A DNA stretch of 64,000 nucleotides from assembly GCA_038200435.1 (NCBI GenBank), contig JBBPXY010000015.1:6396-70395 (forward strand), written 5' to 3'. This stretch comes from Solirubrobacterales bacterium (lineage in GTDB: Bacteria; Actinomycetota; Thermoleophilia; Solirubrobacterales; Solirubrobacteraceae). Each line of letters opens with the position of its first letter. The first letter of the stretch is position 1. Positions 24,679-44,707 of this stretch are shown one piece after another. A program made the position numbers and the translations under genes. Below the pieces are notes generated by a model, which had not been told where the DNA came from, searched no databases, and was given only the letters and a program-made list of their open reading frames with translations.

Positions 24679-25476
24679 GTGCCGCGCCTTGGCGTCCTCG
24701 GTCACCCGGTCGCGCACAGCCGCTCTCCGGCTATGCACCGGGCCGCCTTCGTGGCGCTCGGCATGGACCGGGAGTGGAGATACCAGCGCCTGCCCGTCCC
24801 CCCGGAGCTGTTCAAGGAGACGGTCCGCGCGCTGCCGGCGGCCGGCTTCGTCGGCGCAAACGTGACGATCCCCCCCAAGGAGGCGGCCCTCGCTCTTGCC
24901 GATGAGGCGACGCCGGAAGCCCGTGCGATCGGCGCCGCCAACACCCTCAGCTTCACCCCCGACGGCCGGATCCACGCGGCCAACACCGACGCGCCGGGTC
25001 TGATCGCCGCCCTGCCGGAGCCTCCGGCCGGCCGCAGCGCACTCGTGCTGGGCGCCGGGGGCAGCGCCCGCGCGGTCGCCTGGGCCCTGCGTCACGCCGG
25101 TGCCGGAGAGGTGTCGGTGTGGAATCGCACGCCCGAGCGCGCACGCGCGTTGGCGGACTCGCTCGGGGTGCGGGCGGTCGGCCGTCTGGAGCCCGCCGAT
25201 CTGCTCGTCAACTGCACGTCTGTGGGCTTGGATGGGGAGGGCGGGGAACTCAAGATCGGCCCGCTGGGTGCCGATGAGCTCCTCGGGTTCAACAGCGTGA
25301 TCGATCTTGTCTACGGCACGACGGAGACGGCGCTCGTCTCGACGGCGCGCCGTCTCGGCGTGCCCGCAGTAGATGGGCTCGAGGTGCTCGTCCGGCAGGG
25401 CGCAGCCTCCTTCGAGCTGTGGACAGGCCGCACGCCGCCGCTCGATGCCATGCGGGCCGGGGCCCGGGACTCATGA
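24679..25476 (+). CDS. aroE: shikimate dehydrogenase
   Basis: Motifs HSRSPAMHRAAF, GANVTIPPKEAA, NTDAPG, VLGAGGSARAV. Confidence 0.9.
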   Translation: MPRLGVLGHPVAHSRSPAMHRAAFVALGMDREWRYQRLPVPPELFKETVRALPAAGFVGANVTIPPKEAALALADEATPEARAIGAANTLSFTPDGRIHAANTDAPGLIAALPEPPAGRSALVLGAGGSARAVAWALRHAGAGEVSVWNRTPERARALADSLGVRAVGRLEPADLLVNCTSVGLDGEGGELKIGPLGADELLGFNSVIDLVYGTTETALVSTARRLGVPAVDGLEVLVRQGAASFELWTGRTPPLDAMRAGARDS

Positions 25477-27577: not shown

Positions 27578-27847
27578 GCAGGGCCGCCGGCTTCGCCGGC
27601 TCGAAGTACGGGTGACAGGTACGCGGGCCTTACGTCGCCCCGGGCTCGCATCTGGGAAGGGGGGAAGGAGTGAACCGGCCTCGCAGATGGGGGGTGGTCG
27701 CACTTAACGACAGTGTGTGTCGCTAAAGGCAACCACCCCCTCTCGCTGCCCTCCCAAGATCCGAACGACGCCGCGGCCGATCCCGCGCCCTGCCACCTGC
27801 CACCTGAAGAGGGGTAACGGTCGGACCCTCAGCTGCCGATAGGACGC

Positions 27848-30373: not shown

Positions 30374-30446
30374 TCGAAGAGAACTTCCGCTGTGCCCTCA
30401 AGTGTTGGGCTGAGGGGTCGATATATGGGTTGTCCAGCACTTCTTA

Positions 30447-30527
30447 GGTGCCAAAGGCAAACCGTTCGTGAGGGCGGGACGCAAAGCCACGGATCTCCTT
30501 GAAAGGGGAGGAAGCCGGGTTGCCACC
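30447..30527 (+). promoter_or_regulatory. c-di-GMP-I (GEMM) riboswitch aptamer candidate in the pilA leader
   Basis: The sequence GGUGCCAAAGGCAAACCGUUCGUGAGGGCGGGACGCAAAGCCACGG...UUGAAAGGGGAGGAAGCCGGGUUGCCACC contains the blocks GGCAAACC, a GNRA-capped hairpin (GUGA), GGGACGCAAAGCC and the closing CCGGGUU.CC, as in the Vc2 aptamer as I remember it. The P1 helix is GGUG/CACC. Confidence 0.8.
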
Positions 30528-30559
30528 AGGGTTAGACGCGCTGTCGAGCCCGACGGCAT

Positions 30560-30612: not shown

Positions 30613-31056
30613 ATGCTCACCAAGATCCGTAACCGCGCCGAGGACGAAAAGGGCTTCACCCTGATCGAGCTCCTCGTCGTGATCCTGATCATCGGCATCC
30701 TTGCCGCTATCGCCATTCCGTCGTTCATCAACCAGCGGGGCAAGGGGCAGGACGCCGCCGCCAAGTCTGACGTCAAGACGGCGCAGACCGCGATCGAGAC
30801 GTTCTACACCGACAACCAGAACTACACGACCGACAAGGCTGGCCTCGTGGCCATCGAGCCCGCTCTGACGAGCGTCAACGTGACGGTCACCCCTGGTACC
30901 GACAGCTACTCACTGTCCGTGCCTTCGAAGTCCGGCGCGCAGGGCGGCGGCACGTTCACCATCGTCCGGGCGACCAGCGGTGCGGTGACACGTACCTGCA
31001 CCAACGCCAACAAGGGCGGCTGCAAGGCGGCCGACGCCGACGGGAACATGTGGTAG
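30613..31056 (+). CDS. pilA: major type IV pilin
   Basis: The prepilin leader is MLTKIRNRAEDEKG, with cleavage before FTLIELLVVILIIGILAAIAIPSF (Glu at +5). There is a C-terminal Cys pair (C...C). Strong SD. Confidence 0.93.
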   Translation: MLTKIRNRAEDEKGFTLIELLVVILIIGILAAIAIPSFINQRGKGQDAAAKSDVKTAQTAIETFYTDNQNYTTDKAGLVAIEPALTSVNVTVTPGTDSYSLSVPSKSGAQGGGTFTIVRATSGAVTRTCTNANKGGCKAADADGNMW

Positions 31057-31086
31057 CAGCAGCTTCCTAGCGGAAACTGCTTTTTA

Positions 31087-31120
31087 GAGAGGCGGGCCTT
31101 CGGGCCCGCCTCTTTCGCGT
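31087..31120 (+). terminator. rho-independent terminator after pilA
   Basis: The hairpin AGAGGCGGGCC-TTCG-GGCCCGCCTCT is followed by TTCGCGTT. Confidence 0.8.
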
Positions 31121-31149
31121 TCTGGGGCCGATCTCCGTTCTGGGGCCGA
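31119..31149 (+). repeat. 13-nt direct repeat GTTCTGGGGCCGA x2 (18-nt period)
   Basis: Copies lie at 31119-31131 and 31137-31149, between the pilA terminator and the pilin paralog start. Confidence 0.85.
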
Positions 31150-31154
31150 CCCTC

Positions 31155-31577
31155 ATGTGCGCACTTCGAGCGGCCGATACCAGGAGCGTGCTTCCATCGC
31201 TCCGCCAGTCCTTCTCCGCCGGCTCCGTCATCCTGACCCTCGCCGCCGGCTTCTCACTCGTCTCCACCGAGCACGCGCTCGGACTCGACGGCACCGCCCA
31301 GCGCGACGCGCGGGCCGGCCTGACGGCGATGGAGGAGTTCTACATCCGCCACCAGACCTACAACGCCGATCCCACGCAGCTGGCGCAGACCGACCCGAGA
31401 CTTCAGGGCGCCAACGTCCTCACCGCCAGCGGGACTGCCGAGACTTACGTGGTGTCTGTCACGTCGCGATCTCCGCAGCACACGGTCTTTACGCTCACCC
31501 GGGGCGCCAACGGCACCGTGACCCGCGGCTGCGACACGCCCGGTCGTGGCGGGTGCCCGCTCGCGGGCACGTGGTAG
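31155..31577 (+). CDS. degenerate pilin paralog (PilA-like globular domain, N-terminal helix shortened)
   Basis: The C-terminal 90 aa align by eye with PilA: TAMEEFYIRHQTYNAD...TVFTLTRGANGTVTRGCDTPGRGGC against TAIETFYTDNQNYTTD...GTFTIVRATSGAVTRTCTNANKGGC. The N-terminus AGFSLVSTEH lacks about 20 residues of the hydrophobic helix and the Glu at +5. Confidence 0.5.
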   Translation: MCALRAADTRSVLPSLRQSFSAGSVILTLAAGFSLVSTEHALGLDGTAQRDARAGLTAMEEFYIRHQTYNADPTQLAQTDPRLQGANVLTASGTAETYVVSVTSRSPQHTVFTLTRGANGTVTRGCDTPGRGGCPLAGTW

Positions 31578-31671
31578 CCCGGGCGCGCGCCAGGCGGCCA
31601 TCCGTCGTTCCGGTCCCATCATCGGTCCGGTAACACCCCGCTGGGGCTCAAGTGCCCGTGCCGAGGAGTCG

Positions 31672-34600
31672 ATGGGAACCGGGTCGTCGACCAGGAGATC
31701 GGTACCGGTGCTCACAGGAAGTGGATCGCGAAGGCTCGCTTGGCTCTGTGCGCTGGCCTGCTCGGTCTTCGCCGCGGGCGGGAGCACCGCCCAGGCCGCG
31801 GTCCTCTCTCCGCCGCACGTCTCGTTCTCCTGGGCGCCCGGCACGGCACGCGTGAGCGCACCCATCCAGTTCGACTCGACCGCCTCAGACCCCGGGGGCA
31901 CGCCCATCGCGAGCTACGCCTGGTACTTCGACGGCGACGCGCAGGTCGGCTCGACGGCTCCCGACCCCGCCTACGCGGGATTCTCGACCGAAGGCCCGCA
32001 CCTGGTCCGCCTTGTGGTGACCGACGGCCAGGGCGAGAGCACCACCGAGGAGCACATCGTCCATGTCCATGCCGGCAACCTCGCGCCGCGGGTGGGCGAC
32101 GTCTCGGCGCTACCGGCCCTGCGTCGCGCCGGCGTCGCCATGACGCTCAGATGCGAGTGCTCGGATCCTGACGGGGATCCGGGCACTTCGCTGACCTACG
32201 ACTGGGACTTCGGAGATGGGAGCCCCCATGGCTCGGGGCCGACGCCCACCCACACCTACGCGACGGCGGGCGACCGCGTGATCCGCGTGACCGCCACCGA
32301 CACGCAGGGTGACTCGGCGACGAACATCCTCGCCGTGCACGTACACGGCGGAAACGATCCGCCGACGCTCCGCATCGGGCCCCCGCGCACCGCGATGCCC
32401 ACCGAAAGCCTTCCGTTCGGTGTCTACGCCACCGATGACGCCACGGCGGAGTCAGCCATGAGCTACTCGTGGGACTTCGGCGACGGGACAGCTCCGGCTA
32501 CGGAGGCCAACCCCAACCACGCGTTCGCGGAGGCCGGCGATTACGTCGTGCAGGTCAGCGTGACCGACGGCGACGGCGCCTCGACCATGGCCAGCCAGGT
32601 GGTGCACGTCGGACGCCCCTCCGGCACTCCGTCGGCGTTCTTCAGCACCCTCTTCGATCCGACGGGCAGCGTCCTCTTCGTCGACACCGCGGCGCATCCA
32701 CAGACTGGGCAGCCCGTACTCTTCCAGAACGGGTCAGCCGATCCCGACGGCGCGGCTCTCGTGTCCTACTCGTGGGACTTCGGCGACGGCCAGGGCTCCA
32801 CGGCGGCCTCGCCGTCGCACACGTTCGAGACCGTCGGCGACAAGCTCGTGGTGTTGACTGTCACCGATGCCCAGGGGCTGCGCGCGAAGTACTCGGCGGT
32901 CATGCAGGTACACGCGGGCAACATCGCACCGGTGGCCTCGTTCGTCTCGTCGTCCGACTCCCCTCGCGCCGGGCGATCCGTCGACTTCTTCAGCGAGGCC
33001 AGCGACGCCGATTCGCCCGGGTCCGCCGGGCTCGTCTGCGACTGGGACTTCGGCGACGGCTCGCCCCACTCGAGCGCGTCCGACCCAACCCACACGTTCA
33101 CCGTCCCGGGCCCGCACGACGTCCGCCTGACCGTCACCGATTCGGCGGGCGCGACCGTGGTCGCCGCGCGTACCTTCGCCGTTCACGCCGACAACCTGCC
33201 TCCCGAGGTCGCCCTGAACGCCGACACCGTGTATCCCGGTACCGGGCAAACGGTCAGGTTCACCGACGCCTCGGTCGACCGTGATGGGCAGATCGTCTCC
33301 TACAGCTGGGACTTCGGCGACGGAACCACCGACTCGCAGTCCTCGGTCGAGCACTCCTACCCGACGGCGGGGGACTACCAAGTGCGCGAGGTCGTCACCG
33401 ACGACGACGGGGCGAGCACGACGGAGGTGCTCACCGTGCACGTGGAGCTGGTCCCTCCGTCGGTCTCTTTTCCACCGGCCATCGCGGGCGTGGCCCGGCA
33501 GCGCGACACGCTTACCGCCGGCCCGGGCGCATGGAACGGGTCCACGCCGCTCACCTACGCCTATCAATGGGTGCGCTGCGACCCTGCCGGCACCGCATGC
33601 TCCGACATCGCCGGGGCGGGCGGAGCGGGTGCAAGCTCGACCTACACGCTGACCCGGGCCGACGTGGGCAACGTCGTGACCGTGCGCGTGACGGCGACCA
33701 ACTTCGCCGGCAGCGATTCGGCGAGCTCGGCGCCGAGCGACGTGATCGCTCCCGCGCCCCCGCTTAGTACATCGCCTCCGCCCGTGTCCGGAACGACGCG
33801 CGACGGTGACGTGCTCACCGCCGGACCGGGCGGTTGGGACACGTACTCCACGCCGGTCTACAGCTATCAATGGGTGCGTTGCGACTCGGGCGCCTGCTCT
33901 GACATCGCCGGCGCCGGCGCACAGACCTATCGCTTGACGTTCGCCGACGAGAGCAAGACCGTGCACGTGCGCGTCACCGCCAGCAACCTGGAGGGCGCGA
34001 CGCAGGCCGAATCCGCCGAGACTTCGGCCATCGCCCCGGGGCCGCCCGTCAAGCTGGGTGACCCGACGGTGGCCGGGACCGCGCGCGACGGCGCCACTCT
34101 TGCGTCCGACGCGGGCACTTTCGGCGGCTCGCCGGCCATGACGACCACGCGCACGTGGAAGCTCTGCGACTCGAGCGGATTCTCGTGCGTGGACATCGCC
34201 GGAGCCAGCGGCGGTACCTACACGCTCACCCCCGGCGATGTCGGGCATCGAATACGGCTCGTCGTGGGCAAGTCCAACGCGCTCGGTTCGGCCTCGGGTG
34301 CATCAGCGCCGAGCGCCGTGGTGCTCGCCACTCCTCCGGTCATCACCGCGGCCCCCGCGCTGAGCGGCACGGCGACTGACGGTCAGGTCCTCACGGTCGG
34401 CACGGGCGCGGCCACCGGGACGCCCATCCTCTCCTACGCGTATCGCTGGCGCCGCTGCGACGCCGCCGGAGCGGCGTGCACCGACCTGGCCTCAGGTGGG
34501 TCGGATTCGAGCTACACCCTCACGCCGCAGGATGTCGGCCACCGCATGCGCGTGCGCATGACGGTGAGCAACGCGACCGGCTCGGACTCGAGCGATTCGG

Positions 34601-35589
34601 CCGCGAGCGCGCCCGTCGCACCCGTTCCTCCGAGCCTGCTCGCGCCGTCGGTCGTATCCGGCACAGCGCGCGACGCGGCGGTCCTGACCTCGAGTCCCGG
34701 AGTGTTCACCGGCAGCGGCCCGCAGCTCTCCTACCGCTGGCGTCGCTGCGACCGCACGCTCGGAGGCGACGGGACGGCGATCAACTGCGCCGACGTCGCC
34801 GGTGCGACCCAGCCCACCTACCGTCTCACGGGCGCGGACGTGGCGCACCGGTTCGTCGTTCTCGTCACGGCCACCAACAGCGCCGGATCGGCGTCGGATA
34901 CCTCGGCGCCTACCCCCGTCGTCCTGCCCGCGCCGCCCGTGGCGATGGCCGCTCCCGCCGTGATCGGCACTGCGATGACCGCCCGCGCGCTGACCGCGAC
35001 CGGGGCGCTGTTCTCGGGGAGTGCACCGCTCGCCTACGCCTACCAGTGGAGTCGCTGCGACGCCTCCGGTGCTTCCTGCTCCGACATCGCGGGCGCCACC
35101 GGCGCGAGCTACCCGCTCGGAGCAGGCGACGTCGGGCACACCGTGCGGGTCCGCGTGAGCGCGCGGAACGCGGCGGGCTCGGTTTCGGCCACGTCGGGCC
35201 GCAGTGCCCTCATTCTCTTGGCGATCGACGGGGCCCGCGCTCGCTCGGCGCTCAGCGCGGCACTCCTGACCTCGCGCCGCGCGGCGACCGTGCGCGCCGT
35301 GATGCGCGCGCGGGGCGCGACCACGTACTTCGACGACCGCTTCGGCGCCGGCGTAGTCCAGCTTTCCTGGTACGGCTCCTCGCACGGGCGCTCGGTGCTC
35401 GTGGCGAAGGCGACGCGCACGCTCGCCGGGAGCGGCCGCGTCGCGCTGAAGCTCGTCCTGACCGCACCGGGCCGGGCGCTGCTGAAGAAGGCCGCCCGCG
35501 GCATCAGGCTCACGGGCCGCGGATCGTTCGCACTGGTCCACCAAGCGTCGATCGCCGCCTCGCGCTCGGTGTCGCTGCGTCCGCGCTGA
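31672..35589 (+). CDS. 1305-aa secreted protein with six PKD domains and six Ig-like W.RC repeats
   Basis: ATG 31672 (SD GAGGAG at 31664-31669) lies inside ORF 31546..35589. The signal peptide is LAWLCALACSVFAAGGSTAQA. There are five WDFGDG signatures and one YFDGD, followed by six ~97-aa units containing Y.W.RCD......C.D(I/V)AGA...Y.LT..DVG..(I/V)R(V/L).V.A.N..GS. Confidence 0.85.
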   Translation: MGTGSSTRRSVPVLTGSGSRRLAWLCALACSVFAAGGSTAQAAVLSPPHVSFSWAPGTARVSAPIQFDSTASDPGGTPIASYAWYFDGDAQVGSTAPDPAYAGFSTEGPHLVRLVVTDGQGESTTEEHIVHVHAGNLAPRVGDVSALPALRRAGVAMTLRCECSDPDGDPGTSLTYDWDFGDGSPHGSGPTPTHTYATAGDRVIRVTATDTQGDSATNILAVHVHGGNDPPTLRIGPPRTAMPTESLPFGVYATDDATAESAMSYSWDFGDGTAPATEANPNHAFAEAGDYVVQVSVTDGDGASTMASQVVHVGRPSGTPSAFFSTLFDPTGSVLFVDTAAHPQTGQPVLFQNGSADPDGAALVSYSWDFGDGQGSTAASPSHTFETVGDKLVVLTVTDAQGLRAKYSAVMQVHAGNIAPVASFVSSSDSPRAGRSVDFFSEASDADSPGSAGLVCDWDFGDGSPHSSASDPTHTFTVPGPHDVRLTVTDSAGATVVAARTFAVHADNLPPEVALNADTVYPGTGQTVRFTDASVDRDGQIVSYSWDFGDGTTDSQSSVEHSYPTAGDYQVREVVTDDDGASTTEVLTVHVELVPPSVSFPPAIAGVARQRDTLTAGPGAWNGSTPLTYAYQWVRCDPAGTACSDIAGAGGAGASSTYTLTRADVGNVVTVRVTATNFAGSDSASSAPSDVIAPAPPLSTSPPPVSGTTRDGDVLTAGPGGWDTYSTPVYSYQWVRCDSGACSDIAGAGAQTYRLTFADESKTVHVRVTASNLEGATQAESAETSAIAPGPPVKLGDPTVAGTARDGATLASDAGTFGGSPAMTTTRTWKLCDSSGFSCVDIAGASGGTYTLTPGDVGHRIRLVVGKSNALGSASGASAPSAVVLATPPVITAAPALSGTATDGQVLTVGTGAATGTPILSYAYRWRRCDAAGAACTDLASGGSDSSYTLTPQDVGHRMRVRMTVSNATGSDSSDSAASAPVAPVPPSLLAPSVVSGTARDAAVLTSSPGVFTGSGPQLSYRWRRCDRTLGGDGTAINCADVAGATQPTYRLTGADVAHRFVVLVTATNSAGSASDTSAPTPVVLPAPPVAMAAPAVIGTAMTARALTATGALFSGSAPLAYAYQWSRCDASGASCSDIAGATGASYPLGAGDVGHTVRVRVSARNAAGSVSATSGRSALILLAIDGARARSALSAALLTSRRAATVRAVMRARGATTYFDDRFGAGVVQLSWYGSSHGRSVLVAKATRTLAGSGRVALKLVLTAPGRALLKKAARGIRLTGRGSFALVHQASIAASRSVSLRPR
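31830..33440 (+). repeat. coding repeats: six PKD-type modules
   Basis: The recurring DNA core tgggacttcgg(c/a)ga(c/t)gg lies near 32202, 32470, 32773, 33043 and 33307. Confidence 0.8.
33450..35215 (+). repeat. coding repeats: six ~290-nt Ig-like modules
   Basis: The protein units start PPSVSF, PPLSTS, PPVKLG, PPVITA, PPSLLA and PPVAMA. Each has a conserved W.(R/L)CD...C..(I/V/L)A core. Confidence 0.8.
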
Positions 35590-35698
35590 CGGGGCGGTAC
35601 CCGGCGCGCCGCGGGAGCACGATGCCAATGTGGCCAAGCCGCGGCCCAGAAGCCCGGTGTCGCTCAAGATCAGGCGCCGAGAGGCCGAGTAGTCACCT

Positions 35699-37894
35699 AT
35701 GGATCGCTGCCGCCTGCACGAAGAGAGCGGCTTCAGCATGGTCGAGGTGCTCGTCGCCGCCGTCGTGCTGCTCATCGGCATCACCTCGACGTTCGTGCTC
35801 ATCAGCTCCTCCAACGCCGGTATCAACCGCGCGCGAGCCCGGGAGGGCGCCACCAACCTCGCCCGGGAGACGCTCGAGGACACGCGCAACGTGAACTACT
35901 CGAAGATCGGACAGGCCGGATGGGCCGACTCGATCATGACCGGCCTGTCGGGGCGCACGGGAGCGGTCACCTCGCCGAACGCCAACACATCGCAGACGAC
36001 CGTGGTGCGTAGGGGAGTCACCTATGCGGTGAGCACCTCGTGGTGCTCCGTCGACGACTCGAAGGACAACTTCGGAGTGCATGCCGCCTCCACCGCCTGG
36101 TGCTCGGACAGCATCCAGGCCGACACGAAGGACCCGCAGCCGGAGGACCTCAAGCGCGTATCGGTCAACCTCAGCTGGACCGAGCGCGGGCGCACCGGCA
36201 GCGTGCAGCAGGTGGCCACCTTCGGCGCGGGCGGCGCGGCGCTCGGACCGGTGCTCACCAACCTGCAAATCACCACGCCGACGGTGGCCAACCCGACGGC
36301 CCCGGTCATCACGGCCAATCCGTCAAGCGGCAACGCAACCTTCACGGCGACGGCCGCGGGCGCGGATGACGTGAAGTTCAGCATCGACGGCACCGAGCAG
36401 GCCTCGGGGGTCGTGAAGAACTCCGGCGGGACGTGGACGTTCACGTGGCCCGTCAACACGCTCCGGGACGGCACCTACCAGATCAGCGCCGTGGCGGTCG
36501 ACACGCTGGGCGTCCGCGGGCAGTCCCGGACGCTACCGGTCAGGCTGGCCCGCGGCTGGCCCGTCGTGCCAGCGAACGTCACGGGTGGCTACAACTACGT
36601 CTGGGTCGGTGGTGTCAAGACACTGGTGGTCGAGGGACAGTGGGACGCCAGCCCCGACGGAAGCGTCACGGGCTACGAGCTCCTGGATGGCTCGGGCACG
36701 GTCTGCGGCGGCTCGGGCGACGTGTCGCTCGCGTGCGTCGACCTGACCCCGCCCACATCGGGTTCGAGCTGGTACTACCTCCGGACCTGGTACCGCGATG
36801 CGTCCAATGCGCTCGCTTACGTCACCGTCCCCTACTACCTAACGGCGCCCGCGCAACCGTTCCCGGCCACGTACTCGTGGACGACGGGCACGTCGATCTC
36901 CCGCACCAACTGCTACGGCGGCACGGGCGTCGTGCAGGGCGACGCGCCCTCCACCTTCGCCTCCGGCGCCCAGGCCACCTTCGGCAAGGTCAACGGCAAC
37001 ATCGTGGCTGGTTGCCTCCCTCCCTTCACCGGCGCGGTGAGCAGCACCGCGGGCACCGGCACGGGCACGTTCACCGGCTACTTCAAGAACACCGGCTCGA
37101 AGATCTGCTACCTGCAGGTCGGCGCCTATCCCAACAAGTCGCTGGCCACCAGCAACGCGGTCGAGGGCAACGCGGTCGGCGGCTCGCCCACCTACATGGC
37201 GGTGCCGAAGACCACCACGCCGACGCTCCTGACCTACAACTACAACGTCGTCGCCAAGAGCTTCGCCGCGGGCGATCAGCTCACGACGATCGTCAGCGGC
37301 TTCAGCCCGGGCACGCTCAACAGCGGCGACTGCTCGGGCACCACCTTCTACTACAACACGAGCACCTACCAGTCGAGCCTGGTGATCCCGATGACGACGG
37401 GCGGGAGCACCCCGTTGGCCGTGCCCGCCGCGCCCACCGGCCTCGCGCCCGGGAGCGGCGGTACGACTCTCACCTGGACGGCTCCCGCGAGTAGCAACCC
37501 GGCGGTGGACTTCTACCGCATCTACCGGGACGGCACGAACTACACGAACCGCGTCGACACGGCGGACGCCACCTCCACACCGGTCGGGACGGCGACTTCG
37601 GTGGGCGCGACCACCGTCACCGTGCCGAGCACGAGCGGGTTCGCCGCCGGGCAGAGCGTCTCCGTCGACACGGCGGCCAACCAGGACAACGTGACGATCC
37701 AGTCGGTGTCGGGCACCACCATCACCTTCACCACGGGGCTGGCGCATGCCCACGCCACGGGCGTCCCGGTGGGCGTGCGCACGATCAGCTGGACCGACAC
37801 CAACACGGGTGGCTCCACGCACACCTATGCCGTCACGAGCGTATCTGCGCCGCTCGCCGAATCCGCCTTCACCCCGATCGTGGGGCCGCTGTGA
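35699..37894 (+). CDS. giant minor pilin (PilV-like prepilin N-terminus, 731 aa, Ig/FN3-like C-terminal modules)
   Basis: MDRCRLHEESG is cleaved before FSMVEVLVAAVVLLIGITS (class III signal, Glu at +5). The C-terminal segment LTWTAPASSNPAVDFYRIYRDG is FN3-like. Confidence 0.8.
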   Translation: MDRCRLHEESGFSMVEVLVAAVVLLIGITSTFVLISSSNAGINRARAREGATNLARETLEDTRNVNYSKIGQAGWADSIMTGLSGRTGAVTSPNANTSQTTVVRRGVTYAVSTSWCSVDDSKDNFGVHAASTAWCSDSIQADTKDPQPEDLKRVSVNLSWTERGRTGSVQQVATFGAGGAALGPVLTNLQITTPTVANPTAPVITANPSSGNATFTATAAGADDVKFSIDGTEQASGVVKNSGGTWTFTWPVNTLRDGTYQISAVAVDTLGVRGQSRTLPVRLARGWPVVPANVTGGYNYVWVGGVKTLVVEGQWDASPDGSVTGYELLDGSGTVCGGSGDVSLACVDLTPPTSGSSWYYLRTWYRDASNALAYVTVPYYLTAPAQPFPATYSWTTGTSISRTNCYGGTGVVQGDAPSTFASGAQATFGKVNGNIVAGCLPPFTGAVSSTAGTGTGTFTGYFKNTGSKICYLQVGAYPNKSLATSNAVEGNAVGGSPTYMAVPKTTTPTLLTYNYNVVAKSFAAGDQLTTIVSGFSPGTLNSGDCSGTTFYYNTSTYQSSLVIPMTTGGSTPLAVPAAPTGLAPGSGGTTLTWTAPASSNPAVDFYRIYRDGTNYTNRVDTADATSTPVGTATSVGATTVTVPSTSGFAAGQSVSVDTAANQDNVTIQSVSGTTITFTTGLAHAHATGVPVGVRTISWTDTNTGGSTHTYAVTSVSAPLAESAFTPIVGPL

Positions 37895-38784
37895 TCCGGC
37901 GCCTGCAAGCGGAGGACGGGCTCATGCTCACCGAGATGCTCGTCGGCATGGTCATGGCGATCATCATCTTCGGCGCGACGCTCGGGGCGCTCGACATGTT
38001 CTTTCGCCAGAGCGCGCGCACCGACAAGCAGAGCCAGGCTCAGGACTCGGCCCGCTCCGCCGTCGACCGCATGGCGCGCCTGATTCGCGACGGTGTCGGG
38101 ACCACGGGCGGACCGGTGGAGCAGAGCGGCGCCTACGACATCGTCTTCCTCGCTCCCAGCGCGAACGTCTCTCTGGTCAACAACCCACAGGGGCTCGTGC
38201 ACACCCGCTACTGCATCGATGCGAGCACCCTGAGCAACGAGAAGCTGTGGGTGCAGACGGTGCCCTACAGCTCGACGACTCAGCCGGCGCCCCCGGGGAC
38301 CGGTGGCTGTCCCGACCCATCGGCAGCGTGGACCGCGAAGCGGCTCATCGCCCGCAACCTCGTCAACCGCCAGCGCTCGCCCGCGGCTCCGCTCTTCAAC
38401 CCCTCGACCGACGCCTCGGGGGCAGTGACCGACGTCGCCTTTGACGCCTGGGTCGACGCCGACCCGACCGGCGGCGCGCCGGCCAGCGAGCTCCAGAGCA
38501 GCGTCACCCTGCGCAACCTCAACCACGCCCCAACCGCCACGATCACGTGCCAACCGACGGGTAACGGGCACGTCATCTGCGATGCCTCGGGGTCAACCGA
38601 CGCCGACAGCCAGACGCTGTCCTACGCCTGGCAGATGGACGGCGCCACATTGGCCGGCCAGACCGGCTACAGCCTGGACAAGCCGGGCCTCGTCTCAGGC
38701 GGTACCCATACGTTCACGGTCACGGTGACCGACCCCGGCGGAGCGAGCTCCAGCGCGACGAGCCCGGCGGTGACGCTCCCATGA
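37891..38784 (+). CDS. minor pilin (PilW-like) with C-terminal PKD domain
   Basis: MIRRLQAEDG is cleaved before LMLTEMLVGMVMAIIIFG (Glu at +5). The C-terminus DASGSTDADSQTLSYAWQMDG...HTFTVTVTDPGG is PKD-like. It has an ATGA/GTGA-type overlap with the upstream gene. Confidence 0.75.
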   Translation: MIRRLQAEDGLMLTEMLVGMVMAIIIFGATLGALDMFFRQSARTDKQSQAQDSARSAVDRMARLIRDGVGTTGGPVEQSGAYDIVFLAPSANVSLVNNPQGLVHTRYCIDASTLSNEKLWVQTVPYSSTTQPAPPGTGGCPDPSAAWTAKRLIARNLVNRQRSPAAPLFNPSTDASGAVTDVAFDAWVDADPTGGAPASELQSSVTLRNLNHAPTATITCQPTGNGHVICDASGSTDADSQTLSYAWQMDGATLAGQTGYSLDKPGLVSGGTHTFTVTVTDPGGASSSATSPAVTLP

Positions 38785-40049
38785 GGTCGCGGCTCGCCCA
38801 CGAGGACTCGGGATCGGTCCTTGTCGCCGCGGTGCTCGTCTTGATGATCACGCTCGGCCTCGGCGTGGCGCTCGCCGCAACGGTCAACACCCAGGTCCAC
38901 GCCGCCAAGTACGAGCGCAACCGCGAGTCGAGCTTCACCCTCACCGAGGCGTCCCTGAACGCCCAGGCCCTGCAGCTCGGCCGCCAGTGGCCGACGCGGG
39001 CGACGCCGGCTCCGAGCTCGTGCGACCCAAGCGTGAACAACGCGGCGTGTCCGCTCAGCACCGCGATCACGAACGGCTACACCGCGAACGACTACAACTC
39101 GAGCTGCCCGCGCGCGCCGAGCACCCCGATCTGGAAGACGCAGGTCCGCGACAACGTGAACGGCGAGAAGTACTGGTCCACGGCGGTCAACTCCCGCGGC
39201 AGCTACGACGGCGCCAACGACGGAACGCCCACGGGCGACGGGGCGGTCTGGGTCCGTGCCACCGCCACGGTCCAGTGCCGGGTTCAGTCGATCGTGACGC
39301 TCGTGCGCAACGACCCGCTGCCCGGCATCGACTTCCCGCAGAACGTCATCACCGCGAACTTCTTCCAGACCACCAACCAGGGTCGCAAGGTGCTCGTCGA
39401 CACGCTCGGCTCCTACGCGCAGCCTCCCTCGAGCCGGCCGGGCCCGTCCGGGCAGCCCGCGGCGATCACCCTGCGCTGCACCGGCGTCACCAAGTGCGCG
39501 GACTACAACGCCTCCAAGGGCCAGGTGCAGCCGCCGAAGGTAATCACCGGCAGCCAGACCAGCACCAGCTCGCTGTCGCCCAGCCAGCTCCTCCAGCTCA
39601 AGGCCCAGGCCGTGGCCGCCGGCACCTACTACGCCACGGGCAGCTGTCCGGCGATCACGGCCGCTGGACTGAGCAGCGCGAACGGCGCGCCGGTCTACGT
39701 CGAGGGCCCGTGCAACATCTCGGTCAACAGCAACACCGTCATCAACAGCGCGCCCGCCCCCGGGGCGCTGATCATCGTCAACGGAACGTTCAGCATCAGT
39801 GGAAGCGCGTACTTCTACGGCTTGTTGTACGCGGTGAACGCCCAGGGCTCGACGTCGAGCGTGGTCAACGTGACCGGCAACGGCAGCATCCAGGGCCTCG
39901 TGTCGGTCGACGGAGCGGGCGGAGTGACCGTGGGCGGCAGCGCCACCGGGATCGTCTACGACTCCAAGGCCGGACACCTGCTCAAGGGCAGCGCCGGTGC
40001 TACGCCCGCCAAGGGCACGTGGCGCCAGCTGCCGGCGAACACCCCGTAG
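38781..40049 (+). CDS. PilX-like minor pilin / pilus assembly protein
   Basis: The N-terminus MRSRLAHEDSGSVLVAAVLVLMITLGLGVALAATV...ERNRESSFTLTEASLN is typical of the PilX N-terminal domain. Length 422 aa. Confidence 0.65.
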   Translation: MRSRLAHEDSGSVLVAAVLVLMITLGLGVALAATVNTQVHAAKYERNRESSFTLTEASLNAQALQLGRQWPTRATPAPSSCDPSVNNAACPLSTAITNGYTANDYNSSCPRAPSTPIWKTQVRDNVNGEKYWSTAVNSRGSYDGANDGTPTGDGAVWVRATATVQCRVQSIVTLVRNDPLPGIDFPQNVITANFFQTTNQGRKVLVDTLGSYAQPPSSRPGPSGQPAAITLRCTGVTKCADYNASKGQVQPPKVITGSQTSTSSLSPSQLLQLKAQAVAAGTYYATGSCPAITAAGLSSANGAPVYVEGPCNISVNSNTVINSAPAPGALIIVNGTFSISGSAYFYGLLYAVNAQGSTSSVVNVTGNGSIQGLVSVDGAGGVTVGGSATGIVYDSKAGHLLKGSAGATPAKGTWRQLPANTP

Positions 40050-40082
40050 CGTCCTGCGCGCGCCGTAGGTTCCTTTCAAGGC

Positions 40083-40832
40083 ATGTTTGTCGCGCTCACC
40101 GCCCTGCTCGGGCTGATCATCGGCTCCTTTCTCAACGTGGTGGTCTACCGGCTGCCGCGCGGTGAGTCGCTCTCGCACCCCGCGTCGCGCTGCCCTGGGT
40201 GCGGCACGCCGGTCAAGCCCTTCGACAACGTACCGGTGATCTCGTGGCTCGTGCTGCGCGGCCGCTGCCGCACGTGCCGCACGCCGATCTCCGCGCGCTA
40301 CCCGCTTGTCGAGGCCGGCACGGCGGTCCTCGCGGTCGCGGTGGTGCTCCTCAGGGGCGCCGATCGCGACGCGTGGCTCGGCCTTGCGTTGGTGCTCGTG
40401 CTCGTGCCCGTGGCGCTCATCGATCTCGACCACCGCATCATCCCCAACAAGATCACGCTGCCCGCGGCGATCGCGGCGATCGCGATTGGCGCGCTCACGC
40501 GGCCGGAGCACCTGATCGAGCAGCTCATCGCCGGTGCGGCGGCCGGCGGGTTCCTGCTGCTCGCGGCGCTCGCCTACCCGCGGGGGATGGGGATGGGCGA
40601 CGTTAAGCTCGCGGGCGTGATGGGGCTGTTCCTGGGGCGTGACGTGGCGCCCGCAATGCTCGTCGCGCTGTTGTCGGGCACGATCGTCGGCGCGGTGATC
40701 ATCGCCCGCAAAGGCACCAAGGAGGGCCGGAAGACCGCGGTTCCGTTCGGCCCGTTCCTGGCTCTCGGCGGCTTGGTGGGCCTGCTCGCAGGCGCGCCGA
40801 TCGTCACCTGGTACCTGGACACGTTCGTTTAA
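40083..40832 (+). CDS. pilD: prepilin peptidase (A24 family)
   Basis: Motifs IGSFLNVVVYRLP, CPGCG...CRTCR, DLDHRIIPN, GMGDVKL. About 7 TM helices. Confidence 0.92.
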   Translation: MFVALTALLGLIIGSFLNVVVYRLPRGESLSHPASRCPGCGTPVKPFDNVPVISWLVLRGRCRTCRTPISARYPLVEAGTAVLAVAVVLLRGADRDAWLGLALVLVLVPVALIDLDHRIIPNKITLPAAIAAIAIGALTRPEHLIEQLIAGAAAGGFLLLAALAYPRGMGMGDVKLAGVMGLFLGRDVAPAMLVALLSGTIVGAVIIARKGTKEGRKTAVPFGPFLALGGLVGLLAGAPIVTWYLDTFV

Positions 40833-41090
40833 GAGGCTGTCTCAGAACCCGTTCGCGGCCGCGGGTAACCGTTCCGCGGCGCCGGATCACCACGTCTGAT
40901 CCTCGCCGATGCGCTGCATCGTCTGCGGTCAGCCGTGACGCCCGGCATCCACCGCCCGGTCGTCCCGCGCCTCACGACCGGTTTCAAGACACCCCCTTGG
41001 AGCAAGCCACGCCCGAAAAGGGCTCAACCTTCAGGCGCACCGCGCCGATAGAGCGGGGGCAGGGTCGATCGACGACCCCCACTTGCCACC

Positions 41091-42152
41091 GTGATGAAAC
41101 TCTCCAGCAAAAAGTCCCGAGCCCTTGTCGGACTCGACATCGAACCCGGCTACATCGCCGCCGTCGAGGCGCGCGTCGGCGGCGATGTCGCAGTCGACCA
41201 CGCGGCGGCCGCTGCGCTGGCGCCGGGCGTGGTGCGTGACGGCGAGGTCGCTGACGTCGAGGGCCTGGCCGACGCGCTGCGCGACCTGTTCGCCGAGCAC
41301 AAGCTTCCCAAGCGTGTCCGCCTCGGTGTCGCCAACCAGCGCATCGTCGTGCGCACGATCGATCTTCCCCCGCTCGGCGACGAAAAGGAGCTCGCCGCCG
41401 CGATCAAGTTCCAGGCTCAGGATCACATTCCGATGCCGCTCGACCAAGCGGTGCTCGAGTACCACTCACTCGGCGTCGTGGAGACCCCCGACGGCCCGCG
41501 CGCCCGCGTCGTGATCGTCGCGGCCCGCCGCGACATGCTCGAGCGTTTCCTCGGCGCCGCCCGTCAGGCCGGACTGCGCCCCGAGGGCATCGACCTCTCC
41601 GCCTTCGCCATGATCCGCGCCCTCGGGCGGGGCAACGCCGACGGCTCCGCCACGCTGTACGCGAGCGTCGGCGGCGTCACCAACATGGCGGTCGCAGAGG
41701 GCTCGCGCTGCCTGTTCACCCGCGTCGTGACCGGCGGCTTCGAAACTCTCGTCACCGAGCTCGCCGAGCGCCGCGGCCTCACGTTCCAGCACTCACAGCA
41801 GTGGCTGGGACATGTCGGTCTCGTCGAGCCCGTCGAGGCCATCGACGGCGAGCCCGGGATCGTCTCCGAGGCGCGCGCCGTGCTCAGCGACGGCGTGCGG
41901 CGCATCGCTGACGATCTGCGCAATTCGCTCGACTTCTACCGCTCTCAGGAGGGCGCGATGTCGGTCGAAGCCGCCGTGCTCATCGGGCCGGCCTGCGCGA
42001 TCGACGGATTCACGGAGCAGCTCTCTTCCGAGCTCGGCATCCCGGTCGAGACGGGCATGCCCGTCGAAGGCCGTGCCGGCGCGCTCGTGGGCCTGGATCC
42101 GAGTCGCCTGGCGGTGGCCGCGGGACTCGCCGTCGAGGAGCGACTGGCGTGA
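41091..42152 (+). CDS. pilM: type IV pilus assembly protein PilM (actin-like ATPase fold)
   Basis: The sequence LVGLDIEPGYIAAVE ... 353 aa is followed by pilN with a 4-nt overlap. Confidence 0.88.
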   Translation: MMKLSSKKSRALVGLDIEPGYIAAVEARVGGDVAVDHAAAAALAPGVVRDGEVADVEGLADALRDLFAEHKLPKRVRLGVANQRIVVRTIDLPPLGDEKELAAAIKFQAQDHIPMPLDQAVLEYHSLGVVETPDGPRARVVIVAARRDMLERFLGAARQAGLRPEGIDLSAFAMIRALGRGNADGSATLYASVGGVTNMAVAEGSRCLFTRVVTGGFETLVTELAERRGLTFQHSQQWLGHVGLVEPVEAIDGEPGIVSEARAVLSDGVRRIADDLRNSLDFYRSQEGAMSVEAAVLIGPACAIDGFTEQLSSELGIPVETGMPVEGRAGALVGLDPSRLAVAAGLAVEERLA

Positions 42153-42997
42153 AGGCCGTAAACCTCATCCCGGTCGAGGAACGCCGCGGCGGAGCCAGCG
42201 CCGCGCGCACGCCCACGTACGGCGTCCTCGGCGTGCTCGGTCTGCTCCTCGTCGCGGTCACGGCGTCGGTCGTCCTCTCCAACCAGATCGGCGAGCGCAA
42301 GGCCGACCTCGCCCGCGAGCAGGGCAGGGCGGCAGCAGCCCAGACGCGCGTCGAGAGCCTGAAGCCCTACGTCGCTTTCTCCGAGCTTTCGCAGAAGCGC
42401 GTCCAGACCGTCACCCAGCTCGCCCAGACCCGCTTCGACTGGGAGGGCACGATGCACGATCTCGCCCGTGTCGTCGGCGGCAACGTCTGGATCACCAACT
42501 TCACGGGCACTGTCGCTCCCGGCGTCGATATCGGAAGCGCCGGCAGCGGCGGCGACACGGCCGCCGTGCGCTCGTCTCTATCCGACCCCGCGGTCGAGCT
42601 CAGCGGCTGCGCGACCTCCAACGGCGAGGTCGCCCGGTTCGTCTCGCGCCTGCGCGCCATGAACAGCGTCACGCGGGTGACCATCGTCGGCGCGACGAAG
42701 AGCGACACGGCGACTCCGCAGAGCGCCCCGGCGCCGGGTGGCTCGCCCGCGGCCGGCGGCGGTTCCAGCAGTTCCGGTGGTGACTGCACCGAGGGGAGCG
42801 ACCGCTACCCCGTCTTCGGCCTCGTGATCTTCTTCAAGCCGCTCCCCGGTGGCGCGGCCGTGCCCGCCGCGGCCGGAGCCGCTCCGGCGACCACCCCCGC
42901 CCCGGCCACGTCGGCCAAGCCCGGCTCATCGGCGACGAGCACCACGCCGGGGCCCGCCGGTACCTCTTCCCCCGCTTCAGTCGGAGGCTCCAAGTGA
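42149..42997 (+). CDS. pilN: PilN (fimbrial assembly) with Ala/Pro/Ser-rich C-terminal extension
   Basis: MKAVNLIPVEERRG is followed by a single TM helix (VLGVLGLLLVAVTASVVL) and a coiled-coil segment. Confidence 0.8.
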   Translation: MKAVNLIPVEERRGGASAARTPTYGVLGVLGLLLVAVTASVVLSNQIGERKADLAREQGRAAAAQTRVESLKPYVAFSELSQKRVQTVTQLAQTRFDWEGTMHDLARVVGGNVWITNFTGTVAPGVDIGSAGSGGDTAAVRSSLSDPAVELSGCATSNGEVARFVSRLRAMNSVTRVTIVGATKSDTATPQSAPAPGGSPAAGGGSSSSGGDCTEGSDRYPVFGLVIFFKPLPGGAAVPAAAGAAPATTPAPATSAKPGSSATSTTPGPAGTSSPASVGGSK

Positions 42998-43776
42998 CCA
43001 CGCGTGATCGCATCGTCATTCTCGTCTTGGTCGCTGCGGCCGCCGTGGCCGGGTTCTGGTTCCTCGTGTTCGAGCCCAAGCGCGCCGAGGCGAGCAAGCT
43101 CAGCACCGAGCTGAGCGCCGTGCGCCAGAAGGAGGCCACCGCGCAGCAGGACATCGCCACCGGACTCGCGGCCCGCCGCGCCTACGGTCACAACTACGCC
43201 GTCATCGCGCGTCTCGGCGAGGCCGTGCCCGCCGACGACAACGGGCCGTCGCTCGTCTTCCAGCTCGACTCAGCGGCCAAACGCTCGGGCGTCGACTTCC
43301 GCTCGCTCAAGCTGAGCGCCGGGGCGGGATCGCCCACGGCTGCCGCCGCGGCCGGGAGCAAGCCGGGCGCGGCAGCCGCGCCGACCCAGGCTGCCTCCGC
43401 GACTTTGCCCCCGGGGGCGTCGGTCGGGCCGGCGGGCTTCCCGACGATGCCCTTCCAGCTCGGTTTCGACGGCTCCTTCTTCCACATGTCCGACTTCTTC
43501 CGCCGGCTCGACGCCTTCGTCGACGCCAACTCCAGGCGCGTGTCCGTGAGCGGCCGCCTGCTCACGATCAACGGGCTGTCGCTGACCGCGAGCCGTCATG
43601 GCTTCCCGGCCGTGAAGGCGACGGTGGCGGCCAACGCCTACCTCGTGCCGGCCGATCAGGGCAGCACGGGCGGCGCGACGCCGACCGCGCCGAGCGCGGC
43701 CGGGTCCAAGCCCACGACTTCTTCTTCGACGGGGACCACTCCCGCTCCGGCCACCGCGACCCCGCCCACACGATGA
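42994..43776 (+). CDS. pilO: PilO-like pilus assembly protein
   Basis: An N-terminal TM helix (IVILVLVAAAAVAGFWFLVF), a coiled coil and a C-terminal domain. Its position after pilN fits PilO. Confidence 0.7.
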   Translation: MTTRDRIVILVLVAAAAVAGFWFLVFEPKRAEASKLSTELSAVRQKEATAQQDIATGLAARRAYGHNYAVIARLGEAVPADDNGPSLVFQLDSAAKRSGVDFRSLKLSAGAGSPTAAAAAGSKPGAAAAPTQAASATLPPGASVGPAGFPTMPFQLGFDGSFFHMSDFFRRLDAFVDANSRRVSVSGRLLTINGLSLTASRHGFPAVKATVAANAYLVPADQGSTGGATPTAPSAAGSKPTTSSSTGTTPAPATATPPTR

Positions 43777-44675
43777 AGTTCTTCCGCAACGTCTATGAGG
43801 ATCTGGTCGAGCGCAAGCTGCTTCCGCTCGCCGTACTGCTCATCCTCGCCCTGGTGGCGGTTCCGCTGACGCTCTCGAAGTCGATGCCGATTCCGCCGGC
43901 CGTCGCGGCGTCGAGCGCGGCGCCGGCGCTTGATGTCCCGTCGGCTGTCCCGGCCGTGAGCCTCTCCTCGCCCGACAGCTCGAGCCGCCTCGACCACCTG
44001 GGCGCCCTGAACCCGTTCGAGCAGCGCCACAAGCAGCGCGTGCAGCCGCTCAAGCCAGCGAGCGCGCCGACCACGACCGCCGCCGCCCAGCCCGCCCAGC
44101 CGAGCTCACCCGCGGCGTCGTCCTCGGGTGCCTCGATCGGAGCGGCGGCGTCATCTCCCTCGGCGTCCTCTCCCTCGTCGTCCGGTCCCGTCTCCTCGCC
44201 GTCGCCCAGCGCCGGCCCGTCCCCGCACAGCTCGCGCCCGCCTGCCCGTCATACGGTCAGCTCGCTGCAGGTGCGCTTCGGTCCGCTCGGGCATACGGGA
44301 GGCCGCCATGGGATCGATCGCCTCGCGCCGCTTCCCGACAGCGAAAGCGCGGCCATCATCTACCTGGGGATGCTGCGCGATCACAAGACCGCTTCCTTCC
44401 TCGTTTCCTCCGATGCGCACGCTGAAGGTGACGGGCGCTGCCTGCCCAGTCCCAGCAACTGCCAGAAGGTCTACCTGCGCGCCGGTCAGACCGAGTTCTT
44501 CGATCAGACGAACTCGCACGGTGGGGTCACTCAGTATCAGCTCGATGTCATCGGCGTGGCGAAGCGGGCCGTGGCCTCGGCGCGGACTGCCCGCCGGATG
44601 AGCGCCCGCGTCTCGCGGCGCGGCCAGCGGCTCGAGCGTCACTCCGCCGCCTTCCGCGCGCCCGCTCCCCGCTAG
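43773..44675 (+). CDS. membrane-anchored PilP-like protein (last gene of the pilus locus)
   Basis: A TM helix (LLPLAVLLILALVAVPL), an NPF motif (GALNPFEQ), a long Ser/Pro/Ala linker and a C-terminal beta-rich segment IIYLGMLRDHKTASFLVSSD...YQLDVIGV. Confidence 0.5.
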   Translation: MKFFRNVYEDLVERKLLPLAVLLILALVAVPLTLSKSMPIPPAVAASSAAPALDVPSAVPAVSLSSPDSSSRLDHLGALNPFEQRHKQRVQPLKPASAPTTTAAAQPAQPSSPAASSSGASIGAAASSPSASSPSSSGPVSSPSPSAGPSPHSSRPPARHTVSSLQVRFGPLGHTGGRHGIDRLAPLPDSESAAIIYLGMLRDHKTASFLVSSDAHAEGDGRCLPSPSNCQKVYLRAGQTEFFDQTNSHGGVTQYQLDVIGVAKRAVASARTARRMSARVSRRGQRLERHSAAFRAPAPR

Positions 44676-44707
44676 AGGGCCGGCGTCCGCCTAACCTGTG
44701 GCGCCGC

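Follow-up and report, generated by a model that had tools for sequence, protein, structure and literature searches.

A predicted secreted string of PKD and immunoglobulin-like modules encoded beside the minor pilins of a Solirubrobacterales type IV pilus locus

Background

What is the role of a large secreted protein, itself not a pilin, that is encoded in the midst of a type IV pilus locus? This question is raised by a 64,000-nucleotide (nt) stretch of a Solirubrobacterales genome (assembly GCA_038200435.1, contig JBBPXY010000015.1, positions 6,396 to 70,395 of the forward strand), hereafter the window, in which an open reading frame (ORF) for a protein of 1305 amino acids (aa) is found among pil genes. 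A first-pass annotation of the window described the product, here termed the rod protein, as a Sec-secreted string of six PKD and six immunoglobulin (Ig)-like W.RC modules, and proposed that it represents a pilus-associated adhesin encoded inside the pilus operon. To our knowledge, little work has addressed the type IV pili of bacteria that lack an outer membrane, actinobacteria among them, and the source of their adhesive specificity is an open question. The reading we tentatively favor, with a probability of roughly 0.4, is that the rod protein may be an accessory, regulon-linked and envelope-held surface adhesin of the type IV pilus regulon.

Domain composition of the rod protein

The rod protein consists of a signal peptide, two series of repeated modules and a further C-terminal domain (CT), which are encoded as follows:

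31672-35589, + strand: rod-protein coding sequence as first read, an open frame of 1305 aa without internal stops
31672-31797, + strand: signal peptide, aa 1-42 from the ATG or 30 aa from GTG 31708, predicted cleavage AQA/A
31798-33453, + strand: six PKD domains, aa 43-594, Pfam PF18911/PF00801, net charge -49
33454-35196, + strand: six W.RC modules, aa 595-1175, A9/SCAB-Ig-like domains with one Cys pair each
35197-35586, + strand: CT, aa 1176-1305 (130 aa), predicted helix-decorated beta-sandwich, net charge +20

The stop-free frame of the first-pass annotation is confirmed, and the G+C content of 87% at the third codon position of the gene compares with 70% for the window. The six PKD modules are likewise recovered by Pfam, with PF18911 (275.5 bits, cut-off 27; E=1.4e-83) and PF00801 (214.6 bits; E=1.3e-64) each matching six stretches. 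Their signatures, five WDFGDG and one YFDGD, are located at aa 85, 178, 267, 368, 458 and 546, while the closing VHxxNxxP strand ascribed to all modules is present in only about four of the six. Sequence matches in the PDB include the PKD domains of the collagenases ColH and ColG, with E-values down to 1.4e-19.

The six W.RC modules of about 97 aa can similarly be recognized by W.(R/L)CD motifs at aa 633, 734, 829, 926, 1023 and 1126. Intervals between neighboring motifs are 95-103 aa, and a second Cys follows each motif at a distance of 5-13 residues. As a set they match PF23197 (AIR9 A9; 56 bits, cut-off 27.5) and PF16709 (SCAB Ig; 33.9 bits, cut-off 27.6) in the whole-protein scan, while modules scanned singly reach only 14.8-20.4 bits, below the Pfam cut-off. 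The W.RC modules thus appear to be distant members of the A9/SCAB-type Ig family. The plant AIR9 and SCAB1 proteins are cytoskeletal, whereas the bacterial modules are extracellular and possess a conserved Cys pair. An AlphaFold2 model of W.RC module 6 and CT, built on an alignment of 70 sequences, comprises two beta-sandwiches with a mean predicted confidence (pLDDT) of 95.3, in which CT begins with two helices and carries a third between strands. A Foldseek comparison of this model against the PDB returned the SCAB1 Ig domain as the top match (E 5.8e-5), in line with the Ig-like nature first proposed for the W.RC modules, followed by extender repeats of an adhesin (6xi3), by titin and by further proteins with tandem Ig or fibronectin type III (FnIII) domains, with no pilin, PilY1 or known wall-binding fold among the matches.

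The PKD, A9 and SCAB-Ig families were the only ones detected in the whole-protein Pfam scan, which revealed no catalytic or carbohydrate-binding module. The scan also showed no match to the prepilin motif N_methyl (PF07963), which is matched by pilA and the 731-aa neighbor, so that the first-pass view of the rod protein as a non-pilin with a classical signal peptide stands. The PilY1 domain (PF05567) is not matched in the rod protein either, and a genome-wide search for it gave no match, but neither did the control genomes. Identity to PamR or ZirU was rejected on the basis of NCBIfam scores far below the cut-offs (NF058578: 36.3 bits, cut-off 300; NF040485: 42.8 bits, cut-off 100). PamR, an RbmA-like pilus protein of bacteria of the Candidate Phyla Radiation, belongs to a chaperone-type pilus (PMC13278184).

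The rod protein is thus modeled as an unbranched string of 13 beta-sandwich domains. An Ig-like domain is usually about 4 nm long, from which a rod length of about 45-50 nm would follow. Charge changes along its length from -49 in the PKD part to -3 in the A9 part and +20 in CT, a pattern shared by five homologs, and amino acid identity among orthologs is uniform along the rod (45-59%), ruling out a particularly conserved or hypervariable domain. Aside from the unnamed CT family, the parts of the rod are ordinary PKD and Ig-like domains. In being a long, unbranched string of Ig-like beta-sandwiches it resembles fibrillar multi-repeat adhesins such as SiiE and those with RTX extender repeats (PDB 6xi3). 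It differs from these in lacking a type I secretion signal, a calcium-repeat region and a recognizable ligand-binding head, and in having a cationic C-terminal sandwich as its putative anchor.

The PKD domain at the end of the PilW-like minor pilin encoded downstream had led to the suggestion that PKD units were exchanged between the two genes. A maximum-likelihood tree was built from 39 PKD modules of the orthologs and the W-like minor pilin. In it, the rod modules cluster by position across orthologs, requiring six label changes, the minimum possible, against a mean of 26.8 when labels are shuffled. The minor-pilin PKD stands apart from the rod PKDs in a clade of its own (100/100) with a branch length of 1.44 and is not nested among them, so that the tree lends no support to such an exchange. 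As the modules group by position, the six-fold PKD duplication is older than the divergence of the orthologs. Nearest neighbors in a tree of the A9 modules likewise indicate positional orthology, with labels offset by one missing module in each of two orthologs.

Signal peptide, translational start and anchoring

The N-terminus is that of a classical signal peptide, with a hydrophobic core LAWLCALACSVFAAGG followed by STAQA/A, and the AxA-A cleavage site is retained in the orthologs, supporting the Sec-type signal of the first-pass annotation. Only two hydrophobic 19-aa windows occur in the whole protein, one of them at aa 22-40. With regard to the twin-arginine translocation (Tat) route, whose conserved motif is (S/T)RRxFLK, the signal peptide contains SRRLAWL and the genome encodes TatC. 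The core is strongly hydrophobic, not mildly so as in Tat substrates, and the RR pair is missing in the ortholog on contig L046 and in the homolog P0038, making the Sec route more likely than the Tat route.

A GAGGAG sequence is located 5 nt 5′ of ATG 31672 and an AGGAG sequence 5′ of GTG 31708, the latter being the start codon of the public gene call P0002 (1293 aa). The conserved -10 block of the promoter-like motif described below overlaps ATG 31672, and the motif-embedded ATG is out of frame in L046. Thus, the true start is probably GTG 31708 (1293 aa), not ATG 31672, and the mature protein is identical for either. In the gene model first proposed, the frame is therefore retained, while the start codon should probably be moved; the 130-aa C-terminal domain was not described in it.

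A lipoprotein signal was ruled out, since inspection of the sequence revealed no lipobox before either Cys of the signal peptide. Neither an LPXTG-type motif in sorting position nor a C-terminal hydrophobic window was found in the rod protein, which also lacks a second hydrophobic (transmembrane) anchor.

Genomic context and conservation of the rod gene

Gene order in the locus, which belongs to a genome assembly of 1.94 Mb that is 82.6% complete, is aroE, pilB, pilT, pilC, pilA, a pilin-like ORF, the rod gene, three minor pilin genes, pilD, pilM, pilN, pilO, a gene for a 300-aa protein and aroC. The elements closest to the rod gene are:

30447-30528: c-di-GMP-I-GGC riboswitch in the pilA leader, downstream of a promoter-like motif (Rfam RF03167, 62.1 bits, cut-off 59)
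30613-31056, + strand: pilA, major pilin (N_methyl, E 4.2e-9)
31086-31115, + strand: G+C-rich 13-bp hairpin 3′ of pilA, terminator-like with a weak T tail (ViennaRNA fold of 31057-31160)
31155-31577, + strand: pilin-like ORF of 140 aa without prepilin motif, between pilA and the rod gene
35699-37894, + strand: minV, PilV-like minor pilin of 731 aa (Pfam N_methyl and Big_13)
37891-38784, + strand: PilW-like minor pilin of 297 aa with a C-terminal PKD-like domain, its start overlapping the end of minV by 4 nt
38781-40049, + strand: PilX-like minor pilin of 422 aa with a hydrophobic N-terminus, in 4-nt overlap with the preceding gene

The placement of the rod gene between pilA and the minor pilins is correct as first described, and is to be amended in that the pilin-like ORF and the strong hairpin, the latter not reported by a consensus terminator scan, also sit between pilA and the rod gene. 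The product of the pilin-like ORF shares 33% amino acid identity with the globular part of PilA (E 2e-19) and lacks about 20 residues of the hydrophobic helix; its 81% conservation in contig L040 makes a recent pseudogene improbable.

In the AlphaFold2 model of the minV product (pLDDT 82), residues 14-62 form a helix, and the pilin head is followed by four beta-sandwich modules, for which Foldseek returns generic Ig/FnIII arrays. The extension of this pilin was matched in none of 400 genomes from the same class (E<=1e-10), with about 45 relatives found in metagenomes, and minV is co-inherited with the rod gene. The PKD module previously noted at the end of the PilW-like minor pilin is matched by PF22352 at aa 228-290, a borderline assignment at 28.3 bits with a cut-off of 27. 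Across the orthologous loci the V-like, W-like and X-like minor pilins are about 720, 300 and 410-420 aa in size, respectively, and the PilX-like protein shares 61-75% identity.

A full-length ortholog of the rod protein is missing from all 40 species-level relatives compared within the family or order (0/40), although these encode many W.RC-repeat proteins, with open frames reaching 4926 aa. Where the pil loci of relatives include minor pilins (L021, L032, L036), pilA abuts minV directly, and the pilC-pilD interval is variable among relatives. Full-length orthologs sharing 71% and 48-50% identity could be identified in metagenome and assembly contigs, and six related contigs were compared with the window (n=7):

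L040: pilA and a pilin-like ORF upstream, nothing between the ortholog and minV
L041: ABC transporter genes upstream in place of pilA, nothing between the ortholog and minV
L042 and L043: contig begins 39-52 nt upstream of the ortholog, nothing between the ortholog and minV
L046: an 88-aa ORF and a response-regulator gene on the opposite strand upstream, one 250-aa histidine-kinase-like (HATPase_c) gene (L046:5676-6428) separating the rod gene from the minor pilins
L047: contig begins inside the ortholog, nothing between the ortholog and minV, continuing into pilD, pilM, pilN, pilO and aroC as in the window

The ortholog lies directly upstream of the minor-pilin genes in 7/7 of these contigs, the window included, as far as the contigs reach, and minV identity within the set is 50-61%. 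By comparison, a minor-pilin trio sharing 52-66% identity in L048 and L049 is not accompanied by a rod gene, and the same is true of the more distant clusters L050-L052, while a homolog, P0038, is located outside any pil context. The claim that the gene is conserved next to pil genes thus holds for the close contigs, and fails for the 40 relatives and for several minor-pilin clusters (L048-L052). The latter clusters encode a long V-like protein, ruling out the long minV extension as an obligate partner of the rod. The related minor-pilin cluster in L048 is bordered by a GerE-type response-regulator gene and by PAS/GGDEF genes. As the pairing of ortholog and minor-pilin trio persists in L041, where pilA is absent, the rod gene appears from these comparisons to be an accessory of one sub-lineage, tied to the minor pilins rather than to pilA.

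Identity between L047 and positions 31672-45874 of the window falls from 97% for aroC, 91% for pilM and 81% for pilD to 75% for minX, 72% for minW, 61% for minV and about 49% for the rod protein, the fastest-diverging product of the locus. Such rapid divergence is usual for exposed surface proteins. The steep gradient across a single locus suggests diversifying selection on, or allele replacement of, its surface-exposed parts.

The pairing with the minor pilins also bears on a doubtful possibility, namely that the Sec-exported rod binds a priming complex of the modular PilV-like, PKD-bearing PilW-like and PilX-like minor pilins and thus forms a long, adhesive prolongation of the pilus at its tip. 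It would account for the persistence of the pairing in 7/7 close contigs, including L041 with no neighboring pilA, and for the rod protein and minV being the two fastest-diverging products of the locus, and is in keeping with the PKD domain borne by the W-like minor pilin. Arrays of the A9 type can furthermore be pilus-borne, as they are fused to true prepilin N-termini in L045, where the ORFs at L045:2382-9185 and L045:10001-15091 encode giant modular pilins (2267 and 1696 aa) that combine prepilin N-termini with long A9-type arrays and a phage-tail Collar domain. The minor-pilin clusters without a rod gene and the direct junction of pilA with minV in relatives, on the other hand, argue against tip docking.

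A passenger, that is, a fast-evolving surface gene that entered the pil locus of one lineage at a variable site and was kept through the close kinship of the genomes, would explain the absence of the gene from the family- and order-level relatives, and is consistent with the variability of the pilC-pilD region and with the close relationship of the carrier contigs (aroC 97% in L047). We consider it very improbable, as the linkage to the minor pilins has outlasted two local rearrangements, in L041 and L046.

Promoter-like motifs and regulation

Alignment of the intergenic DNA of the orthologous loci revealed two conserved blocks, the one before the rod gene reading GCTCAAG-N15-GTCGATG. Both are promoter-like motifs of the flagellar/WhiG type, which recur across the window in the form TCAAG or TAAC, N14-16 and a GCCGAT-type box:

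31648-31675, + strand: before the rod gene, TCAAG (31648-31652), N15, GTCGATGG (31668-31675)
35664-35691, + strand: before minV, TCAAG-N15-GCCGAGTA, ending 7 nt before the ATG
25250-25275: before pilB, a closer copy of the consensus
about 27815-27842: before pilT, a closer copy of the consensus, TAAC-N16-GCCGATAG, ending 7 nt before GTG 27848
30398-30424: before the pilA riboswitch, a closer copy of the consensus
41024-41051: before pilM, a closer copy of the consensus

The rod-gene motif is retained in the otherwise diverged upstream DNA of L040 and L046, with a degenerate copy in L041, while both the sequence of the minV motif and its distance to the ATG (7-8 nt) are retained in six loci (L040-L043, L046, L047). 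This short distance implies that the predicted minV transcript is leaderless, and that of pilT would be leaderless as well. Transcription is predicted to begin near 31680 for the rod gene and near 35698 for minV. The pattern TCAAGN{15,16}GYCGAK occurs three times in the window against 0.28 expected, a count reached in 0/100 shuffles, and in seven relatives the same motif is located before pilA, pilM, pilB or minV. Contig C52 of the genome studied here encodes, on its minus strand near 924 and 4762, two collagen-like (G-x-y) secreted proteins, each after a good copy of the motif (GTCAAG-N15/16-GCCGATA), which may be further surface fibers of the same regulon.

In the Rubrobacteria, a sister class, WhiG promoters drive pilus units, and the Rubrobacter flagellar/WhiG consensus (-35 TAAA, -10 GCCGATAA) is found at promoters that have been mapped for type IV pilus units, the rule being a maximum of two mismatches (PMC8325347). 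The genome studied here encodes two FliA/WhiG-family sigma factors (contigs C19 and C56), while neither flagellin nor FlhA was found in the 82.6%-complete assembly, and a scan for consensus sigma-70 promoters returned no site. Since the same conserved motif precedes the rod gene and the pil genes, the rod gene is suggested to be transcribed separately, as a member of a WhiG-type pilus regulon. The proposal that it lies inside the pilus operon is consequently upheld as to the position in the locus and the shared pil-type motif, and probably not as to a single transcription unit, given its own promoter-like motif. A mere passenger would not be expected to carry a pil-type motif, which is absent upstream of the non-pil homolog P0038. 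The separate conserved motif of the minor pilins, in turn, is a point against tip docking of the rod.

The cationic C-terminal domain

No Pfam family matches CT, in scans of either the whole protein or the single domain. It contains 23 K/R against 3 D/E residues, and its charge ranges from +19 to +25 in all orthologs. A HMMER scan of 1.84 billion representative proteins identified 148 relatives, in which the domain is almost always at the extreme C-terminus of host proteins of 86-1938 residues; those checked bear PQQ or FG-GAP propellers, Big_3_5 or A9 repeats, and the named matches derive from Solirubrobacteraceae metagenome genomes. The genome itself holds one clear and one weak match and each of the 40 relatives 0-5 copies, and the copies compared in the relatives are distant from pilC or on another contig. 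A CT profile found nothing below E 0.39 among PDB sequences, and the Foldseek matches were restricted to generic tandem Ig/FnIII proteins. This family (window 35197-35586, proteins P0122-P0339; consensus ...KLKLTxxGRxLLKHAKxLKLTAKGTFTP...) can be observed on many secreted Solirubrobacterales-type proteins.

Given its low copy number, varied host architectures and location away from pilC, CT is a generic C-terminal module of secreted proteins and not pilus-specific. The low copy number also excludes a high-copy sorting signal resembling the C-terminal domain of the type IX secretion system. A role as pilus-specific docking domain is weakened by the same distribution on proteins unrelated to pili, which speaks against tip docking too, as does the absence of any charge complementarity with the minor pilins, on which an electrostatic fit between CT and a minor pilin was rejected. 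Its strong positive charge suggests that CT would most likely keep the rod attached to the anionic envelope by non-covalent contacts.

The cationic domain could alternatively bind extracellular DNA or exopolysaccharide and not the wall of its own cell, in which case a shed rod might bind polysaccharide or other polymers through its PKD/Ig arrays, or bridge cells. That would be compatible with the lack of any covalent or membrane anchor, with the resemblance of the PKDs to those of collagenases and glycoside hydrolases, which adjoin substrate-binding modules, and with the presence of the tandem FnIII matrix scaffold RbmA among the weak fold matches (ranks 34-47). The fold matches are those of generic tandem beta-sandwiches, the Pfam scan revealed no catalytic or carbohydrate-binding module, and such a role would leave the close linkage with the minor pilins unexplained, so that release from the cell is considered improbable.

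Proposed role and comparison with known pilus partners

We propose that the rod protein would be exported by the Sec system and cleaved after AQA, and would fold extracellularly into a 13-domain string of six acidic PKD, six disulfide-clasped A9-type Ig domains and one cationic CT. The latter (+20) would retain it non-covalently on the anionic envelope with the acidic PKD end outward. Its own flagellar/WhiG-type promoter would ensure that the rod is made when pili are made, as is suggested by the conserved motifs and the Rubrobacter precedent, and it may contribute to attachment or to the cohesion of cells together with the modular minor pilins specific to this lineage. Considering the 0/40 relatives, the minor-pilin clusters that lack the gene and the probable own promoter, the rod is probably an accessory, lineage-specific addition rather than a core part of the pilus. 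The original idea of a pilus-associated adhesin thus survives in the non-pilin nature of the protein, its 7/7 linkage to minor pilins and its pil-type motif, but not as a core pilus component.

Several observations weigh against an envelope-held adhesin of the pilus regulon. The rod-gene motif (TCAA and GTCGATGG) has four mismatches to the Rubrobacter consensus, above the two-mismatch rule (PMC8325347), and better copies precede pilT, pilA and pilM. CT is without a solved or named relative, and its binding to the envelope is a prediction from sequence. The genome encodes a sortase, making covalent anchoring available to the organism, yet it is unused by the rod protein. Furthermore, no ligand-binding head is recognizable in the rod, along which divergence is uniform, and its tight linkage to the minor pilins would be explained no less well by docking directly on the pilus.

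For a secreted protein that is not a pilin, partnership with a minor pilin does have precedents in CofJ of the enterotoxigenic Escherichia coli pilus CFA/III and TcpF of the toxin-coregulated pilus of Vibrio cholerae, which bind the tip minor pilin (PMC6048534, PMC9565799, PMC10120004), and the doubtful tip-docked rod considered above would be a functional analog of these or of PilY1/PilC in a bacterium without an outer membrane. Like CofJ and TcpF, which are functionally tied to a minor pilin, the rod protein is a non-pilin with a Sec signal encoded in a type IV pilus locus. The former belong to the type IVb pili of diderms and dock by a flexible N-terminal segment, whereas the mature rod begins directly with the first PKD strand, has no such segment and has no outer membrane to cross; by their descriptions, they are also unrelated to it in size and fold. 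PilY1/PilC of proteobacterial type IVa pili are, like the rod protein, large non-pilins with an ordinary signal peptide encoded beside core minor pilins of the FimU-PilVWX type. The rod lacks the PilY1 beta-propeller (PF05567) and any pilin-like segment, a further argument against tip docking, and its gene is situated upstream of the minor pilins with its own promoter-like motif, in an 82.6%-complete assembly in which no secretin was found, and is dispensable in many related loci. It consequently resembles PilY1/PilC and CofJ/TcpF in gene placement only.

A more elaborate version, which we regard as still less likely, is that of a detachable pilus-tip extension that docks on the modular minor pilins, by PKD-PKD contact with the PilW-like protein or via CT, and co-diversifies with them in a c-di-GMP-linked WhiG-type regulon. 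If true, the PilY1 and CofJ/TcpF families would be joined for the first time by another tip adhesin that is not a pilin.

Adhesive or structural modules are also added to a monoderm pilus system in the modular pilins PilB and PilC of Streptococcus sanguinis (PMC8179133, PMC9934059), and the 731-aa and 297-aa neighbors of the rod protein are of the same kind. The rod itself differs from these in lacking a pilin moiety, its modules being placed on a separate polypeptide.

Conclusions

Should the rod prove to be pilus-borne, it would represent a third, unrelated kind of non-pilin pilus partner, while an ordinary wall-associated adhesin would be a routine finding. As it stands, three further leads come from the locus. 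One is a separate secreted rod whose gene accompanies a particular group of modular minor pilins, and another an uncharacterized, strongly cationic C-terminal family on many Solirubrobacterales-type secreted proteins, which may be a surface-retention module. Finally, the conserved motifs provide sequence evidence extending the WhiG-type control of pili known from Rubrobacter (PMC8325347) to the Thermoleophilia, with an accessory adhesin possibly included in the regulon.

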